Positions 22,460 to 29,674 of a stretch of DNA of 64,000 bases are shown here, in pieces. Position 1 is the stretch's first letter. Each line of letters starts with the position of its first letter. The stretch is from positions 46,977 to 110,976 of the forward strand of contig JABJJN010000008.1 in NCBI GenBank assembly GCA_018660835.1, written 5' to 3'. The notes below the pieces were generated by a model that did not search any database, had not been told where the DNA came from, and saw nothing but the letters and a program-made list of their open reading frames with translations. This DNA comes from Gemmatimonadota bacterium. GTDB lineage: Bacteria > Latescibacterota > UBA2968 > UBA8231. The translations under genes were made by a program, and so were the position numbers.

Positions 22460-22498
22460 CAGTCAGGCCAGACAGTCAGGCCAGACAATCAGGTAGGC
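22460..22498. repeat. 13-bp tandem repeat, about 2.8 copies (cagtcaggccaga)
   Basis: Two perfect copies at 22460-22485, then a degenerate third (caatcaggtaggc) that contains the stop of the 22489-23175 gene. Confidence 0.6.
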
Positions 22499-23175
22499 GC
22501 GGAAGGTTGCACCGGAAGCGAAACATGCAGATGGTCGGCAGACCCAGCGTGGCGGTCTGCTTTGAGTCCCATCAGCAGAAACAGGCCCTGACGGGCCCAG
22601 TTGCGTAGGTCCCCCGCGTCGTGGACTCGCAGATCAACTGCATGAGCGTATCCATCCGTTTGCGGATAATGGCGGGATGTAAAAGGCAGACGCAACCCCA
22701 TCAGGTGATAATCCTCTGGACCACGGCGCAGATCGGTCAGCACGAGTGACTCGTCGCCGAGTCGAGCAACCCACAGTGCGTGCCGCAATGTCGGATGCAG
22801 ATGTGTCCATTCTGCACGCACATCGTCGCTCTTGAAGTTGTCCCGTGGGAAATGCGTCGTCGCCAAGGTGCCGGCCAGAACCATCAGAAGCGGCAGAGCA
22901 AGCAGGAGTCCGCCCGCTCGGCGAACCGAATGCAAGCGGAGGATCAGTCCAAGAGAGAGAAATAGAACAACGCCCCCTGCCGCCAGACCGGCAGCAACGG
23001 CCAGCCAGTCTGGAGACAGATGACCGGAGGCATTCTGATAGGAGAGGATCGCCAGTTGGCCCCGTACGGCGACAAACAGGGCCAGCACGGTTCCCGCCAC
23101 GGCACCGACGAGTCGCAAGCCCAGGTACATCACCCGGTTGCCCAAACGCCGATCCGCCGTGAGCCAGGTATTCAT
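22489..23175 (-). CDS. 3-TM membrane protein with extracytoplasmic LAS/peptidase-M15-like domain
   Basis: Three N-terminal TM helices. C-terminal domain with TSRHYPQTDGYAHAVDL (SxHxxGxAxD-like) and a terminal DHLHVS (HxH). ATGA overlap with the upstream DUF4097 gene. Confidence 0.55.
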   Translation of the reverse strand: MNTWLTADRRLGNRVMYLGLRLVGAVAGTVLALFVAVRGQLAILSYQNASGHLSPDWLAVAAGLAAGGVVLFLSLGLILRLHSVRRAGGLLLALPLLMVLAGTLATTHFPRDNFKSDDVRAEWTHLHPTLRHALWVARLGDESLVLTDLRRGPEDYHLMGLRLPFTSRHYPQTDGYAHAVDLRVHDAGDLRNWARQGLFLLMGLKADRHAGSADHLHVSLPVQPSAPT

Positions 23176-23969
23176 CTGCTCTGCAGTCGTACGCGACCGA
23201 TGTTGGCACGAGCCTTCAGCGTGGGGCCTCCGCCATTGATATCCCCGGAGAGACGTTCGCCGATCCAGGAGTCACGCTCGGTGCGAACATCAAAATCGCT
23301 GTCGACACTGCCGATGTTCACTGATGCATCCAGATGCACGGCAATATCCACAGGCAGCGTCAGTTCAACATCGCCCACATTGGTTTCGAATCGCAGTCGC
23401 CCTTCGCCTGCAAGGCGCCCGAGATTCACTTTGATCCGCCCGACATTGGCTTTGGCCTCGACGGTGCCCTCTTGCATGTCAACGTCGATCTCACCCACGT
23501 GAGTTTCGACGGCGACACGTCCGGACACACCTTCGACTGCGACCCTGCCCACATCCAGTTCCGCATCGATCTGCACTTGGTGCGGGACGGTGACCTCATA
23601 GTCGACGACATAGTCCTCATCCTTGTCATCGAGAAACTCACCTGGCACACGGGTGCGAACGTAGACTGCCCCTGGCGTCTCTTCGACGCGTATTTCCACT
23701 TCCTGCAGAAGGCGCTCGGCCTCTTCCTTGTTGTCAGCGTCGTCTACTTCGATCCGCACGACGATCCGCACTCGATCGACGTCTGCCCCCTTGATCTGAA
23801 CGTCACCGACCGTGTTGTCGATTTCGAATCGACCACCCGGTGCAAGAGAGGCAGAATAGGTCTCTTCCATCGTCGCTGAGGCTGCCCAGCTGGCGACGAC
23901 CATGCCCACGCTGAGCAGACTGATCGTGAGCAGATTCCGGCCGAGTGAGTGGGTCCGTTTCATGCTCAT
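23172..23969 (-). CDS. DUF4097 (toastrack-type beta-strand repeat) protein, secreted or anchored
   Basis: Signal/anchor segment, then repeated xVGxVxV strands (VGDVQIKG, VGRVAVEG, VGEIDVDM, VGRIKVNL, VGDVELTL, IGSVDSDF, IGRVRLQS). Confidence 0.8.
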   Translation of the reverse strand: MSMKRTHSLGRNLLTISLLSVGMVVASWAASATMEETYSASLAPGGRFEIDNTVGDVQIKGADVDRVRIVVRIEVDDADNKEEAERLLQEVEIRVEETPGAVYVRTRVPGEFLDDKDEDYVVDYEVTVPHQVQIDAELDVGRVAVEGVSGRVAVETHVGEIDVDMQEGTVEAKANVGRIKVNLGRLAGEGRLRFETNVGDVELTLPVDIAVHLDASVNIGSVDSDFDVRTERDSWIGERLSGDINGGGPTLKARANIGRVRLQSR

Positions 23970-24976
23970 GATTCTTCACCTGATTCCGCTGCGGCGTCAG
24001 TTCCCTGTGTCTCGTTGAATCTGCGCTCCAGGCGTTCGCACTTCTCGTTGAGAGCAAGCAGGATATCCTGCGTGTCGGTGAGTCGCTTTTCGATTTCGAT
24101 GAGACGCCCCCCCTCAGCCGGAGGCAGCGCCACATTGCGTAGAGCCATGCCGCCGGCGACGACGGCAAGGGCACCGATACCGTAGAGCAGAATCTGTCCG
24201 AGAGTGCTGGCTACAGACCCGACGGAAGACCACCACGGCATGAAAGCCCGCTCCGTGGACAACACGAGGGTGCCCACCCGATCTGGACCGTGGAACTTCT
24301 GCTCAGCGGAATTTCCCCATGGAATCCAGCGATGACCGTTGGTCTGCTTGTCGACGACAACCAGATCGAATCCGATGGCTCGACCGGCGTCAGTCAGATC
24401 GATTGGCAGTTCATCGAAATCGGTGAAGACGGGCACCGACCATTCATAGGTCACTTGATCACCATAGCCGTGGTAGCGCTGATAGGCCGCTTCGACGCCC
24501 TTGGAGGCCGCATCACGCCGTCGATTACCAACCAAGGCGCAGGGATTCCCACAACCCGGTACGTATTCACCAGCCCCAGGAACGAAGGAAAACTGGATGG
24601 GATTGTGCATCCCTCCACGGGGTTCACACGGAGCATCACTCTTGGGGTCGCCTCCCCAGGTAAAGACCTCCATGCCGTCTGTTGAATTCCAATGATTGCC
24701 GATATCGACTTCAGCGTAATCGACAACGGCAGCGACAAAGATACGATCGCGCTCAGGACTGTAGAGGACGCGAAAGGCGCCTTTGGGATTACTCGAGGCG
24801 CCATACTCTACGAGACCGTCTGGCCAATCGCTCAGGTCACCATCGATCTCGATATCGTCGTAGATCAGGGCGACCGCTTCGTTGCCACCACCACACAGAT
24901 CGGCCCGAATCGGGCTTGTGGCGGCCAGGCCGAAAACAACCAGGAAAATGAAACGAAACATGGTGGTGCTCTTCAT
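23966..24976 (-). CDS. bitopic membrane protein: CBM9-like ectodomain, one TM, conserved cytoplasmic C-terminal helix
   Basis: Signal peptide MKSTTMFRFIFLVVFGLAATSPIRA. CBM9-like marks (IDGDLSDWP, IGFDLVVVDK, WIPWG). TM segment ILLYGIGALAVVAGGMAL. Tail LIEIEKRLTDTQDILLALNEKCERLERRF. Confidence 0.75.
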   Translation of the reverse strand: MKSTTMFRFIFLVVFGLAATSPIRADLCGGGNEAVALIYDDIEIDGDLSDWPDGLVEYGASSNPKGAFRVLYSPERDRIFVAAVVDYAEVDIGNHWNSTDGMEVFTWGGDPKSDAPCEPRGGMHNPIQFSFVPGAGEYVPGCGNPCALVGNRRRDAASKGVEAAYQRYHGYGDQVTYEWSVPVFTDFDELPIDLTDAGRAIGFDLVVVDKQTNGHRWIPWGNSAEQKFHGPDRVGTLVLSTERAFMPWWSSVGSVASTLGQILLYGIGALAVVAGGMALRNVALPPAEGGRLIEIEKRLTDTQDILLALNEKCERLERRFNETQGTDAAAESGEES

Positions 24977-24980
24977 TCGA

Positions 24981-26564
24981 TCATACTCCCTGACTCGGCT
25001 TCTCGTCGAGTCGATCCAGCTTTTCACTCAGAGCGATCATCACATCCTGCGTATCGGTGAGACGCTGCTCAATGCGCTCGATCCGGTCCGTCATGCCTGA
25101 AACCTGCTTACCCGATTCACCACCTGTACGTCGTAGCACGGTGATGGTGATACCGATGGCACCCACCAGAAGAGCCAGCCCCATCAACGTGGAGAAAACG
25201 ATCTCAGACACATGCTCAGCACGGCTGCCAACATTGATGTCGGGAATGACAGGGATCGGGTAAGATGGGATGGATGGGATGGCCTCCATTTCGATGACGC
25301 TCCCTTCCGCCGCGGCAATGGCTTCAGCGCCGATCGCCATAGCGATCGCTTCCGCCACACGCACCTGCACCTGAGACTCGCTGGCGCTCCGAATCTGCTG
25401 CTCAATGGTCTGCTGCTGGCCGAAGCGAGCTTCGTTAATTCCCTCCTGCAATTCGGCCTGCGCAAGTTGTAACTCTTGTTGAGCCTGCTGCAGTCCCTGA
25501 CGCATTTCGGACAGATCCGCTTCGCTGGCCCCTTCTTGACGCATCCATTCCAGAACGCGCTCGTCATCGGTCGCATCCTGAACACCTTCCAGAATTCCGG
25601 CGACGAGGGAACCAATCCCATTCACGGCAACATCAAGGTCATCGGCGTGATTCTCATGAATCACAACATCTCCGGTATGTCCTACGTGACCGGTATGGGC
25701 CTCAGGCGTCGTCTCTGCGTGCGTTCGATGTGACCCACTCGCTGTCCAGGCGGAGAGCACGAGGTCACGCGGCTTCAGACTCGTCCCAGCGGCAAACATG
25801 GGACCACCTCCCAGCAGAACCCGCCCGACACGATCGTTGCTTGCCCACTTGGTGCCCACCGGCGGTCCCCACGGAACCCAGGCTGCATTGCCGGTACCCG
25901 GTCCATCGTGATCGACGATGACCACATCCAGACCGATCACATCTCCCGCCGTCAGATTGCTGCGCTGTCCAGGCCGATCAAACAGATCGATCTGCCACTC
26001 GTACGTGGTGATGTCTCCTTGGCGTCGCCAGACAGCTCGCGTTCTCGTCCGCCCGATAGCACCATTGCGCATCGCCGGATTGCCCTGATAGGAAACCATC
26101 TGATGGTCTCCAGGCACCATGACGTACTTCGTCGGCTGCTGTCCAGGTGAATTGCCTACCAGGCCCGATACGTAAATCTCCAAGCCATCGCTTTGTAGAT
26201 GATTCGGCCGCTGGGGGTTGTAGTTGACATCGTCGCGGACCTCGACGGCCAGATAGAGAAGATCTACGTCCGGCTGATAGCCGACCATCATGACGGGTGT
26301 CAGATCCTGACTGTCCGTCAGATCGCGCCCTGCCAGGTCGGTTCGCCCATAGACTTCAAAATTGTTGACGATCGGCTGCATCGACATCCCACGGGGCCAA
26401 TCGGACAGATCGCCATCAAGCCGAATACCATCCAACGGTACCGCCAGCGTACTCTGCGAAATGGCTTGAGTTGGCGCGGCACTGGCCAACAATGTGACGA
26501 TGCAAGTCGCAGCCAGGAACGAACAGCCTATGAGTCTGATGGAAAGTCTCTGTGGAGGGAGCAT
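24981..26564 (-). CDS. bitopic membrane protein: CBM9-like ectodomain, His-rich and coiled segment, one TM, the same cytoplasmic C-terminal helix
   Basis: Signal peptide. LDGDLSDWP, IGLDVVIVDHD, WVPWGPP. His-rich stretch HRTHAETTPEAHTGHVGHTGDVVIHENH. TM segment LMGLALLVGAIGITITVL. Tail RIERIEQRLTDTQDVMIALSEKLDRLDEK. Confidence 0.75.
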   Translation of the reverse strand: MLPPQRLSIRLIGCSFLAATCIVTLLASAAPTQAISQSTLAVPLDGIRLDGDLSDWPRGMSMQPIVNNFEVYGRTDLAGRDLTDSQDLTPVMMVGYQPDVDLLYLAVEVRDDVNYNPQRPNHLQSDGLEIYVSGLVGNSPGQQPTKYVMVPGDHQMVSYQGNPAMRNGAIGRTRTRAVWRRQGDITTYEWQIDLFDRPGQRSNLTAGDVIGLDVVIVDHDGPGTGNAAWVPWGPPVGTKWASNDRVGRVLLGGGPMFAAGTSLKPRDLVLSAWTASGSHRTHAETTPEAHTGHVGHTGDVVIHENHADDLDVAVNGIGSLVAGILEGVQDATDDERVLEWMRQEGASEADLSEMRQGLQQAQQELQLAQAELQEGINEARFGQQQTIEQQIRSASESQVQVRVAEAIAMAIGAEAIAAAEGSVIEMEAIPSIPSYPIPVIPDINVGSRAEHVSEIVFSTLMGLALLVGAIGITITVLRRTGGESGKQVSGMTDRIERIEQRLTDTQDVMIALSEKLDRLDEKPSQGV

Positions 26565-26629: not shown

Positions 26630-26992
26630 TCAGTATTGGACGTATTGTACTCGTTGATCAACGCGGTCGCTCATATCGAGCAGTACCCCTTGAAGATCTG
26701 TCAGCTGGCCGTCGATTCGATCAATTCGGCCCTGCAATTCTCCGACACGGGCAGGCGCTACATCGGGCTCCTCCCACCGTCGCAACGGCCGACCTTCCAC
26801 GTCACGGAAGGAGCCGACGATGATGAAGATCAGATCGATCGTCGCCCAGATGCCAAAACCGCCGAAGGTCAGGACCATGAGGATCGCTGTGCCAATTTTG
26901 CCAACATAGAAACGATGAACACCCAGCCACCCGAAGAAGAAACACAGCAGACCCGCTGCCAGGCGAGACTTGGGAGAAACGTCAGCTTGCAT
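26630..26992 (-). CDS. TM2-domain membrane protein with the same C-terminal helix motif
   Basis: FFFGWLGVHRFYVGKIGTAILMVLTFGGFGIWATIDLI (TM2 domain). Tail RIDRIDGQLTDLQGVLLDMSDRVDQRV. I chose the start at MQADVSPK. Confidence 0.75.
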   Translation of the reverse strand: MQADVSPKSRLAAGLLCFFFGWLGVHRFYVGKIGTAILMVLTFGGFGIWATIDLIFIIVGSFRDVEGRPLRRWEEPDVAPARVGELQGRIDRIDGQLTDLQGVLLDMSDRVDQRVQYVQY

Positions 26993-27743
26993 TGGTCTCC
27001 TCTTTCTTATCGGATTCGGCTGCTTTGTCAGGTGCTGGCTCCTCGCCTCTGAGTGCAGCCAGCTCCTCATCGACGCGCCGGCGCAGGGCCAGTTTCTCGA
27101 ATTCCTGATTCAGCCCACCGTCGCCGAAGATATCCCGGCGGACCTCATGGGTCGCCGTGTCGGCTTCCTCTGCCAGGTCCAGGCGCTGACGAAGTCGTTC
27201 GAATTCGCTGCGCTTCTCCTGCAGTCGGCGCTCCATATTCTGTACATCTGAGACGGGGTCGCGCTCGGGCGTCACATCGATGTGCTGCTCGTCAGTTCGA
27301 CGGGCATTGCGCAGACGAGCGATGAGCGCTCCCTGCCGATTCTGGGCATCACGCAGATCGTCGCGCAACATGGACAGTTTCGCGCGTAGATCCTCGACCG
27401 TCTGCTGTCCCTGCGTCAGGGCAGGGTCGATGCCGGCGATCGTCTCTTCGAGAACCACTTTGCGCGCCAGTGCCTGTCGAGCCAGTGGCTCGTCACCCAG
27501 TTCAAGAGCGCGCGTCGCTTTGGCCTGCATCTGTTCAATGCGCTCACGCGTCGCCTTGCGTTCCTTCTCAAGGCGCCGCTGATCGGCGACGGCCGTGCTC
27601 ACAGCCCCAACGGCTCGATCCACAGTCGCTTCCATATCGCGAACCATCTGGCGCACCATCTTTTCTGGATCTTCAAGTCGGTCAAGGACTTCGTTCACAT
27701 TCGAGCGGACGATGTGGGTAATTCGATTCAGTGTCTTGTTCAT
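26982..27743 (-). CDS. pspA: phage shock protein A (PspA/IM30 family)
   Basis: MNKTLNRITHIVRSNVNEVLDRLEDPEKMVRQMVRDMEATVDRA..., with coiled coil throughout. AGGAG lies upstream of the ATG at 27743. The longer ORF start at 27824 falls inside the predicted promoter. Confidence 0.9.
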   Translation of the reverse strand: MNKTLNRITHIVRSNVNEVLDRLEDPEKMVRQMVRDMEATVDRAVGAVSTAVADQRRLEKERKATRERIEQMQAKATRALELGDEPLARQALARKVVLEETIAGIDPALTQGQQTVEDLRAKLSMLRDDLRDAQNRQGALIARLRNARRTDEQHIDVTPERDPVSDVQNMERRLQEKRSEFERLRQRLDLAEEADTATHEVRRDIFGDGGLNQEFEKLALRRRVDEELAALRGEEPAPDKAAESDKKEETNAS

Positions 27744-27815
27744 TTCTTCATCTCCTGAAGTCGGCCCCACCCTCGATCTGGTGGGAAGTGCATCGGTATC
27801 GGACGACACACCCAT

Positions 27816-27832
27816 TGCAATCACCGTACCAG
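27816..27832 (-). promoter_or_regulatory. sigma54-type -24/-12 promoter upstream of pspA
   Basis: The minus strand reads CTGGTACGGTGATTGCA, against the consensus YTGGCACGrNNNTTGCW. There is one mismatch (C to T in the -24 box) and the GG/GC spacing is correct. It lies about 70 nt upstream of the pspA ATG. Confidence 0.65.
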
Positions 27833-28033
27833 CTGTCGAACAACCCGACTTAAGTAGATAGTTTTACTTCACTTAGATGACATTTCAGACAACCGTAATT
27901 GGCACAGGATTCGGCCGCTCACGCCAGTTGAGTGGCGACAGCCGCCACCACGGAGGCAGCCGTCAGAGCTCACGTATGCAGCGTCGTGGGCGGTGCGGGT
28001 AGCGGTTTTCCGGGAAGTGGATGGTCCTCCCCT

Positions 28034-28070
28034 GGCAACGAGAAAGGCCCGCAGCAACTGCTGCGGGCCT
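28034..28070 (-). terminator. rho-independent terminator after the small HTH gene
   Basis: Perfect 11-bp stem (AGGCCCGCAGC / GCTGCGGGCCT) with a 4-nt loop, followed on the minus strand by TTCTCGTT. Confidence 0.7.
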
Positions 28071-28109
28071 GGCCCGTACGACGTCATATATGCAATGTGC
28101 AGCGAGGTC

Positions 28110-28322
28110 TTAGCCGCCTGGAGATCTGTCAGCGATGGTGCCTAATCGCCGGCAGCTACTGAGTTGACGCCGTCGCTTCGCGTAGGGCGTCTCGATTCCA
28201 TACTTGGTGCACAGCCGGCTGAAACTGCGCAGGGTGATGCCCAATGCCTTCGATGCGTCTCCATTGCTGCGATACATCCGCGCGACACGTTCGATTGTTT
28301 CCTGGTCATAGCCGCGAATCAT
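28110..28322 (-). CDS. small Fis-type (HTH_8-like) DNA-binding protein
   Basis: MIRGYDQETIERVARMYRSNGDASKALGITLRSFSRLCTKYGIE resembles the C-terminal HTH of Fis/NtrC-type proteins. It has its own terminator. An in-frame TTG start as far up as 28520 cannot be excluded. Confidence 0.55.
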   Translation of the reverse strand: MIRGYDQETIERVARMYRSNGDASKALGITLRSFSRLCTKYGIETPYAKRRRQLSSCRRLGTIADRSPGG

Positions 28323-28594
28323 GACGAATCCCACTCCGTGATGGTGTTGATGGAAGAGTGGAGGAGAAGAAGCGTCCTCCATGCACCCAGTCGTCATAGC
28401 AACGGTCGTACCCACACAGAGGCAGCCGGCTTTGCCCTCAGAGAAACCTGCAAGTGTCACGGTCTGGCCACTGTCGAATTGGCTCGGGCCGCCACTACAC
28501 TGGCGGATTTGGCCGGCCAAAAAGAATCAGCTGTTGGGTCGAGGCAAGCGTGTTGATCGCTGGCCATGCAGGTCAAACCGAGTCGTGGGTCGTC

Positions 28595-29674
28595 TCAACT
28601 CGTCACCTCGCCTGAACTGAGCAGATACTCTTTGACGGCATCCATATCCAATTCACCACCAAGCCCGGGTCCGAGTGGGACGCTGATGCGCTCACCTTCG
28701 CGATCGGGCATCTGCACGACAAAATCGTCTACGTGTAGAGGCGTCGACAGAATGTCGTGCGGGACTGTGGCCGCCTCAGGCACGGCGCAGACGTGGATGT
28801 AGGACAGATCCATGATACCGAGATCGACGCCCGATCCATGCCAGCATGATTTGCCCGCGGCACCGGCCACGTCGACCATGGTGACAAATTCGAAACTGGA
28901 ATTGGGACTGCAGTTGAAGATATCTGCTGCATCCGCCTGCAGAGCACCGACAACGGCCTGCGTCGACCCTAAGTGGAGGGCAATGGGGATGTCGGTCTCT
29001 TCTCGCAGGACACGATACCAGTCGTAACGATCCTTTGGCAGTGGATCCTCCAGGCATACGACATTCAGATCAGCCATCTGTCGTGTGAGCACGCGCATCT
29101 CATCGAGATTGTCGTAGCGCGACATGGCGTCGACGATGAAACGTAGGTCCGGGGCGACCTCGCGCATCCGCTGCAGACGCTCGATCACTTCCATTCCCTG
29201 CATGATCTTGATCTTCAAACAGCTGTATCCCCCATCTCGTGCAGCCGCTGCGGCGGCCAACGAGTGAGTCGGATTCTGCAGACCAGCCCAGTAGCTGCCG
29301 ATCACCTGATCTCGGCATGCCCCACCAAGCAGATCACACATTCGCATGTTGTGTATGCGCCCCACCATATCGAGCAATGCGGTCTCATAGGACTTGTAGA
29401 CGGAAGCCAGGGCACCGTCCAAGGGCAGGCGACGCAGCGGGATATTGCGAGGGTCCAGCCCGATCATCTGCCGCGCTGCGGCCTCTACGTCGGCGCCTTT
29501 GGCTCCCCGTCCTGTCTCACCGACACCATAGGTGCCGTCGTCTGTGTGTAGACGAATGAGATATTTCGGCACGAGATCCCACTGTTCGTGGGTGTCGGCG
29601 TATTCAGGACTGTTCACCATCTCCTGATGGACGAACTGATTCACTTCCCACCATTCGACGCGGTCAATTTTCAT
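28595..29674 (-). CDS. enolase-superfamily enzyme (mandelate racemase/muconate lactonizing family)
   Basis: N-terminal capping domain (GVGETGRG) and a barrel with KIKI...DAM...EDP acid ligands. 359 aa. Confidence 0.8.
   Translation of the reverse strand: MKIDRVEWWEVNQFVHQEMVNSPEYADTHEQWDLVPKYLIRLHTDDGTYGVGETGRGAKGADVEAAARQMIGLDPRNIPLRRLPLDGALASVYKSYETALLDMVGRIHNMRMCDLLGGACRDQVIGSYWAGLQNPTHSLAAAAAARDGGYSCLKIKIMQGMEVIERLQRMREVAPDLRFIVDAMSRYDNLDEMRVLTRQMADLNVVCLEDPLPKDRYDWYRVLREETDIPIALHLGSTQAVVGALQADAADIFNCSPNSSFEFVTMVDVAGAAGKSCWHGSGVDLGIMDLSYIHVCAVPEAATVPHDILSTPLHVDDFVVQMPDREGERISVPLGPGLGGELDMDAVKEYLLSSGEVTS

Follow-up and report, generated by a model that had tools for sequence, protein, structure and literature searches.

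Control of phage-shock (psp) genes by sigma-54 and the activator PspF is textbook biology in enterobacteria and, to our knowledge, has been worked out almost entirely there. The E. coli pspF-pspA intergenic region holds the sites TGATGAAATTCGCCA and TAGTGTAATTCGCTA, which are 20 bp apart and start 100 nt before TGGCAC. W56 of PspF is a surface residue for PspA binding and negative control (PMC3128695). Outside enterobacteria, sigma-54/PspF control of psp has been inferred in Desulfovibrio vulgaris (DVU2989, PspF, with the regulon DVU2988-2986; PMC4641369). Operons combining PspF and Toastrack genes occur in spirochaetes and alphaproteobacteria (PMC11237479), in a cross-phylum survey of Psp systems that by its own statement did not analyse the regulators in detail.

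The stretch of DNA analysed here, referred to as the window, is 64,000 nucleotides long and lies on a 423-kb contig (C4) of a Latescibacterota MAG (G000; 7.09 Mb, 93% complete, 8% contamination). As judged from the sequence, the pspA gene of this organism is preceded by a sigma-54 promoter that is genuine and conserved, together with an enhancer of its own. We assign a probability of about 0.82 to the reading that this is a functional-type sigma-54 promoter of a six-gene envelope-stress operon, driven in trans by a PspF-type activator from a second psp locus. The features of the locus, given in window coordinates, are as follows.

22489-23175, minus strand: 228-aa membrane protein, the last gene of the operon
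23172-23969, minus strand: Toastrack/DUF4097 protein
24981-26564 and 23966-24976, minus strand: two CBM9-like membrane-anchored proteins
26630-26992, minus strand: TM2-domain membrane protein, called as 120 aa, its start overlapping the end of pspA
26982-27743, minus strand: pspA, 253 aa, PspA/IM30 (PF04012, E=5.8e-31, residues 5-234)
27744-27805, minus strand: predicted pspA 5′ leader, 62 nt, with the Shine-Dalgarno sequence AGGAG at 27756-27752 and the ATG at 27743
27767-27785, minus strand: small leader hairpin, CCCACC-N7-GGTGGG, read from the sequence
27816-27832, minus strand: sigma-54 promoter of pspA, CTGGTACGGTGATTGCA, based on sequence, a PWM score of 16.8 bits and conservation in 27/30 related pspA loci
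27833-27911, minus strand: spacer between enhancer and promoter, A+T-enriched (GC 0.46 vs 0.585 in the genome), presumed looping region
27912-27947, minus strand: tandem UAS of pspA, TGGCG-N5-CGCCA twice, conserved in register, best tandem match genome-wide
28045-28070, minus strand: intrinsic terminator, a stem of 11 bp (9 of them GC pairs) followed by a T-run
28110-28322, minus strand: stand-alone HTH protein, 70 aa, putatively of the NtrC/Fis DNA-binding-domain type
28398-28413, minus strand: sigma-54-type promoter of the HTH gene, gGGTACGaccgTTGCT, predicted +1 near 28387
28480-28515, minus strand: second tandem UAS, CGGCCAAATCCGCCA-N6-TGGCGGCCCGAGCCA, about 100 nt 5′ of the HTH promoter

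The original prediction placed a near-consensus sigma-54 site with one mismatch and exact GG/GC spacing at 27832-27816 of the minus strand, and re-reading the sequence gave the same result. The single mismatch of CTGGTACGGTGATTGCA to YTGGCACGrNNNTTGCW is a T for C at -22. The GG (27830-27829, -25/-24) and the GC (27818-27817, -13/-12) are separated by the exact 10-nt gap and are thus exactly one helical turn apart in TGGTACggtgaTTGCA. The distance from the element to the pspA ATG is 72 nt, and transcription is predicted to start near 27805. As in E. coli psp, a sigma-54 -24/-12 promoter precedes pspA.

The site was scored, as had been suggested, with a sigma-54 PWM built from 26 other G000 sites (TGGCAC-N5-TTGCW), the pspA site itself being excluded. 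At 16.8 bits it ranked 50th genome-wide, where 17.7 sites were expected at that score under a first-order Markov null as long as the genome, so that motif strength alone amounts to roughly two-to-one odds. By PWM, chance would place about 2e-4 such sites in a particular upstream region of 150 nt. The pattern TGGYAY-N5-TTGCW occurs 46 times in the genome, mostly just upstream of ORFs (groES and dnaK among them), against 10-16 times for three composition-matched scrambled patterns. The decisive evidence that the motif is not due to chance is its conservation. Among 30 pspA loci drawn from 40 related genomes, 27 carry TGGCA(C/T)-N5-TTGC 60-93 nt 5′ of the pspA start, a count that covers 13 genera. 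At the population level no polymorphism was found around the promoter, seven contigs being identical. The search for rpoN that had been proposed along with the prediction recovered a single, intact copy on contig C73, so the prediction does not founder on a missing sigma factor. Its 493-aa product has the domains PF00309 (AID), PF04963 (core-binding) and PF04552 (DNA-binding) and the RpoN box ARRTVAKYR. Motif, conservation and rpoN together support the promoter class originally proposed for pspA.

Other sigma-54-type sites in this genome were also recorded. A site almost identical to the pspA promoter, TTGCTGGTACGGAGATTGCAATAG, is located outside the window at G000:C4:197641-197664, 40 nt 5′ of a small lipoprotein gene, with no psp-type UAS upstream of it at the threshold used. 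Many of the best sites in the genome have an extended -12 region, TTGCAATAG, in common, which points to a preference, specific to this lineage, at the positions 3′ of the GC. The groES (G000:C92:30204-30227) and dnaK (C92:265047-265070) genes have the sigma-54-type promoters TGGTACGGCCATTGCA and TGGTACAAGACTTGCA. In 16 of 30 related groES loci (L120-L149), TGGCAC-N5-TTGC was found 58-160 nt upstream; all 16 belong to this bacterial family and have no CIRCE. A perfect CIRCE operator was found instead in five of six groES loci from sister families. Heat-shock chaperones under sigma-54 look like a family trait.

The pspA enhancer consists of site 1, TGGCGGCTGTCGCCA (27947-27933, minus strand), and site 2, TGGCGTGAGCGGCCG (27926-27912, minus strand), with a pitch of 21 bp, centres near -135 and -114, and a distance of 116 nt to the -24 element. 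It is the top tandem match in the whole genome (18/19 positions). In the relatives the palindromes show a spacing of 21-22 bp and a distance of 111-128 nt from their start to the -24 TGG, in register across genera. E. coli psp likewise has a tandem pair of activator sites, about 100-130 nt upstream, and the half-site CGCCA is common to both systems. In one relative (L036, G014:C1) a unit of about 50 bp with the palindrome GGTGGCGATCAGCGCCAC is present in three tandem copies upstream of the pspA promoter, so that the enhancer has been amplified by tandem duplication. No IHF consensus at one mismatch or fewer was found in the window spacer, and the spacers of the relatives contained only scattered 1-mismatch matches; IHF involvement is therefore not claimed.

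All six genes of the operon (pspA, the TM2 gene, the two CBM9-like genes, the Toastrack gene and the membrane protein gene) are intact, and the last two, which close the operon, are joined by overlapping stop and start codons. The pspA product scored 96 bits against TIGR02977, under the 243-bit cut-off, and so does not qualify as an equivalog of the E. coli protein. Unlike E. coli psp, which also differs in regard to the IHF consensus, the operon includes no pspB, pspC or pspD, and has TM2, CBM9-like and Toastrack proteins instead. The operon had earlier been described as Lia-like in content because of DUF4097, and the Toastrack gene bears this out. As in liaIHGFSR of Bacillus subtilis, a PspA homolog would be co-transcribed with a DUF4097/Toastrack (LiaG/LiaF-like) protein and placed under two-component control. 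Unlike liaIHGFSR, this control would involve sigma-54 and a bEBP, and not SigA and the NarL-type LiaR. LiaRS-type two-component genes are missing from the operon (none among the eight ORFs scanned), no sigma-70-like promoter of the SigA kind was found, the LiaH model scored 68 against a 380-bit cut-off, and the Toastrack protein is the sole common component. Rfam gave no match in the leader or in the intergenic region, and the leader hairpin is not kept in a genome of the same genus. The terminator at 28070-28045 is located just 3′ of the upstream HTH gene, and the same hairpin is present in two relatives (G001 and G018). Since this strong terminator separates the HTH gene from pspA, read-through is unlikely.

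The absence of an AAA+ sigma-54 activator from the 64 kb, stated in the original prediction, was if anything understated. G000 has about 38 bEBPs and 42 PF00158 matches, none of them on the whole of contig C4. Five relatives encode a bEBP of about 470-500 aa at a distance of 1-8 kb from a pspA gene. The five proteins are mutual orthologs composed of a receiver (REC), a coiled-coil linker, an AAA+ domain with GAFTGA and an HTH. Orthologs were found in 25 of the 28 pspA-bearing genomes and in none of the 13 pspA-less ones, a pattern that holds over 22 genera, the genomes being related and not independent. G000 has exactly one ortholog, at C71:8773-10014, with the motif HEKGAFTGA and 71-76% identity to those of the relatives, vs about 40% for the next bEBP. 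Receiver-less short bEBPs on C44, C11, C64 and C61 were considered as PspF candidates and rejected, as orthology by the same figures picks the C71 protein alone.

A full-length homolog, P0001 (472 aa), is 90% identical to the C71 protein. It is 49% identical to E. coli PspF along the whole of PspF, both AAA+ and HTH included, and the recognition helix is nearly identical (HTH QKDAAAGLGLTYDRFRHLLRKHDL in P0001, QKRAAELLGLTYHQFRALLKKHQI in E. coli PspF). The best NCBIfam match was TIGR02974 (pspF) at 362 bits, under the equivalog cut-off of 443.55. Judged from P0001, the putative cognate activator appears to be a PspF ortholog, and we infer from co-occurrence and the similarity to E. coli that a C71-type activator binds the pspA UAS. 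The lead given originally, to PspF-like bEBPs lacking a receiver, held for the PspF relationship and failed for the receiver. All full-length orthologs possess an N-terminal receiver, unlike the PspF (TIGR02974) type, which has no N-terminal domain. The position of W56 is Ala in both P0001 and the C71 protein, and the activator also differs from E. coli PspF in its coiled-coil linker and its partner, a TPR-sensor histidine kinase. NtrC1/DctD-type bEBPs share the order REC, coiled-coil linker, AAA+ with GAFTGA and Fis-type HTH, as well as the partner kinase in the same operon. They are unlike the present activator in that its AAA+ and HTH belong to the PspF clade, its targets are membrane-stress genes and its receiver is cut in half in this genome. 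Since promoter, enhancer layout and activator core all match E. coli psp, the system is considered homologous to it except in its signal input.

The closest full-length relative carries, in this order, aminotransferase, aldehyde dehydrogenase, FGE-sulfatase and SSF transporter (-), then pspA2, four small genes, the kinase and the activator, and further on NifU and SOD. The pspA2 gene of this relative has the same UAS and a TGGCAC-N5-TTGCA promoter. The partner kinase of this locus is the TPR-sensor histidine kinase, and we infer that it senses envelope stress. Unlike its E. coli counterpart, the activator gene is not divergent from pspA and belongs to the downstream part of a second pspA operon. 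A locus of the window type (HTH, pspA, TM2) is 450 kb from the pspA2-kinase-activator locus in the complete genome G018. Gene order, the pspA2 UAS and the distance in G018 together indicate that the window operon is a trans target of a probably autoregulated activator encoded at a second psp locus. The lack of a local activator would follow from a regulon that this lineage operates in trans, and a promoter without a nearby activator is explained as ordinary regulon architecture.

Under this reading, E-sigma54 would form a closed complex on 27830-27817, and dimers of the PspF-type AAA+ activator would occupy the two TGGCG-N5-CGCCA palindromes near -135 and -114. The activator would then oligomerise, loop across the A+T-rich spacer and drive promoter opening at the expense of ATP. 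It would be supplied by the second locus, which comprises pspA2, small genes, the TPR-sensor histidine kinase and the REC-AAA+-HTH PspF ortholog, and its predicted targets are its own promoter, the window pspA operon and the adjoining small HTH gene. In G000, only pspA and the HTH gene were found to have both a strong palindrome and a good promoter with the spacing expected between them. A weaker third candidate is located at C73:21708-21745, where perfect tandem palindromes, TGGCGGGATCCGCCA-N7-GGCGGATCCCGCCG, are followed about 108 nt beyond by TGGTGCGCGACTTGCT on the minus strand. This candidate lies upstream of a gene for a secreted CBM9-like protein, a possible third member of the psp regulon.

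The C71 locus of G000 has undergone a deletion. At C71:8604-8789 (L070), 3.94 kb of the relative's locus are replaced by 157 bp of unrelated sequence, with both flanks kept. The loss took with it pspA2 and its promoter, the four small genes, the kinase and some 66 codons of the receiver, the phospho-acceptor Asp among them. Homology resumes at FGAGEPDG, just past the phospho-acceptor, and LDLDF becomes NSTNF; Pfam recovered receiver positions 56-101 of 111 only. The missing receiver N-terminus was not found elsewhere in the assembly. The identical junction was present in GCA_018660165.1, which is 9 SNPs apart across 6.1 kb, so that the deletion is not an assembly chimera. An orphan ORF of 42 codons in the 157-bp filler has a good Shine-Dalgarno sequence and no homolog. 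We considered the same-genus genome G001 as a test of an earlier activator loss; the whole C71-like region is unassembled there, and the comparison was uninformative.

The remnant retains 415 intact codons, with a dN/dS of 0.02-0.03 against P0001, including in the receiver remnant. Since dS is saturated, this indicates that the deletion is recent relative to the split from P0001, and nothing more. No convincing start codon or ribosome-binding site was found for the remnant; gene callers use a TTG without a Shine-Dalgarno sequence, and the first ATG in frame comes 84 codons into the reading frame. Having lost the phospho-acceptor Asp, the product, if made, cannot be phosphorylated, and it may be either constitutively active or inactive. 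Receiver deletion makes NtrC1/DctD-type activators constitutively active. An intact copy of the activator could also be unassembled in the MAG, or C71 could come from a close relative, though its composition fits C4 (GC and tetranucleotide usage agree between the two contigs).

The deletion gives rise to the strongest alternative to activation in trans, namely that the sigma-54 promoter and UAS are relics. The sole cognate activator would have been killed by the deletion, leaving the operon silent or fired only by cross-talk from the roughly 37 other bEBPs. The loss of kinase and phospho-acceptor, the lack of a good translation start on the remnant and the absence of a second activator ortholog from the assembly all favour this explanation. 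The low dN/dS, extending even into the receiver remnant, would fit an event so recent that decay has not yet begun. It is countered by the intact state of the six operon genes and of the 415-codon remnant, and by the UAS, which is still the best such site in the genome. Moreover, the C71 protein keeps the long coiled-coil linker of the NtrC1/DctD-type activators that are constitutive without a receiver. The locus is identical in seven samples with no sign of decay, though this is also uninformative. On balance we regard an orphaned operon as unlikely, and prefer activation in trans by the C71-type PspF ortholog.

The gene directly upstream of pspA encodes the small HTH protein, an arrangement found in at least 6 genera. 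The protein family is present in 22 of 24 genomes of this bacterial family (9 copies in G000) and in 0 of 16 from sister families. A UAS palindrome was located 150-200 nt upstream in all eight psp-linked HTH genes of relatives and in none of 22 unlinked paralogs. Most of the psp-linked genes of relatives also have TGGCA-N6-TTGC, in other genera 55-65 nt before the start, and the same enhancer with a sigma-54 promoter accompanies the small HTH gene in at least 7 genera. Because it is preceded by a sigma-54 promoter of its own and by the same enhancer, the HTH gene is best regarded as a member of the regulon and not as a substitute activator.

The AF2 model of the protein (pLDDT 76) consists of three helices and a C-terminal helix. 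Its best compact PDB matches were 2m8g (rmsd 1.6 Å, 33% identity) and 4l5e, both sigma-54 activator DNA-binding domains, with E-values of at least 0.5 that are not significant. Identity to the C-termini of the bEBPs of the same genome was 27-34%. The protein had no match to Pfam HTH_8, and the family profile found nothing significant among PDB sequences. Weak, sub-threshold matches to RWP-RK, a Pfam family described as a plant/algal DNA-binding domain, occurred in all 23 small-HTH members of alignment A1 (best E=2.7e-4; motif LGI..RSFSRLCR.YGIETPYARRRR). At G000:C61:38900-40000 there is an NtrC-like AAA+ protein without GAFTGA (ELFGVDRDDKAPRKG) and without a DNA-binding domain. A 62-aa member of the small-HTH family follows it after 10 nt, and the two form a naturally split AAA+/HTH pair.

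The small HTH protein itself could be the reader of the UAS, either as the detached DNA-binding subunit of an AAA+ protein without such a domain or as a DNA-binding-domain-only feedback competitor. Its conserved position upstream of pspA, a fold that best matches sigma-54 activator DNA-binding domains, the C61 paralog next to an AAA+ gene of that kind and the UAS at every psp-linked copy would agree with this. We nevertheless consider it quite improbable. Two genomes (G003 and G014) and contig 1 of G010 have the UAS with no adjacent small HTH gene, and a PspF-like activator instead. The family is absent from the sister families, where UAS, promoter and activator persist. The recognition helix, TLRSFSRLCTKY, differs from that of the activator, TYDRFRHLLRKH, at most exposed positions, and the PspF-like activator has an HTH of its own. 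With the activator as the reader, the small HTH protein may act as a feedback competitor, an architectural factor or a secondary regulator.

That the element is a chance motif, with pspA transcribed from a housekeeping-sigma promoter or by upstream read-through, is very improbable: an equal or better score would turn up by chance at about 18 places in the genome, but 27/30 loci conserve the element at a fixed distance from pspA and UAS, no sigma-70-like hexamer pair was found in 27650-28650 and a strong terminator lies upstream.

A further reading joins two parts of the activation-in-trans scheme and is offered only speculatively. The C71 deletion would have made a receiver-less activator out of a phosphorylation-controlled PspF ortholog, with the small HTH protein as its DNA-binding-domain-only feedback partner. 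If so, C71 would be a natural snapshot of how PspF-type activators devoid of a regulatory domain arise from response regulators, and such control of the psp regulon as is left in this genome would be exerted mainly by the small HTH protein.

The PspF proteins of Desulfovibrio vulgaris (DVU2989), spirochaetes and alphaproteobacteria have no N-terminal domain, unlike the activator described here. A PspF with receiver and kinase, a regulon acting in trans, a co-regulated small HTH gene and Latescibacterota as such are not in PMC4641369 or PMC11237479.

Sigma-54 activation in trans by the PspF ortholog would mean that the promoter class is conserved in an uncultured phylum, along with an activator DNA-binding domain still recognisable as homologous and a related half-site in the enhancer. 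Signal input would have been rewired, with a TPR histidine kinase and a receiver in place of direct PspA-PspF binding. One activator would serve several loci in trans, and its regulon would include a previously unannotated small HTH protein. The outcome is a concrete predicted regulon of three promoters, one enhancer motif and one activator, together with a natural receiver-truncation allele.
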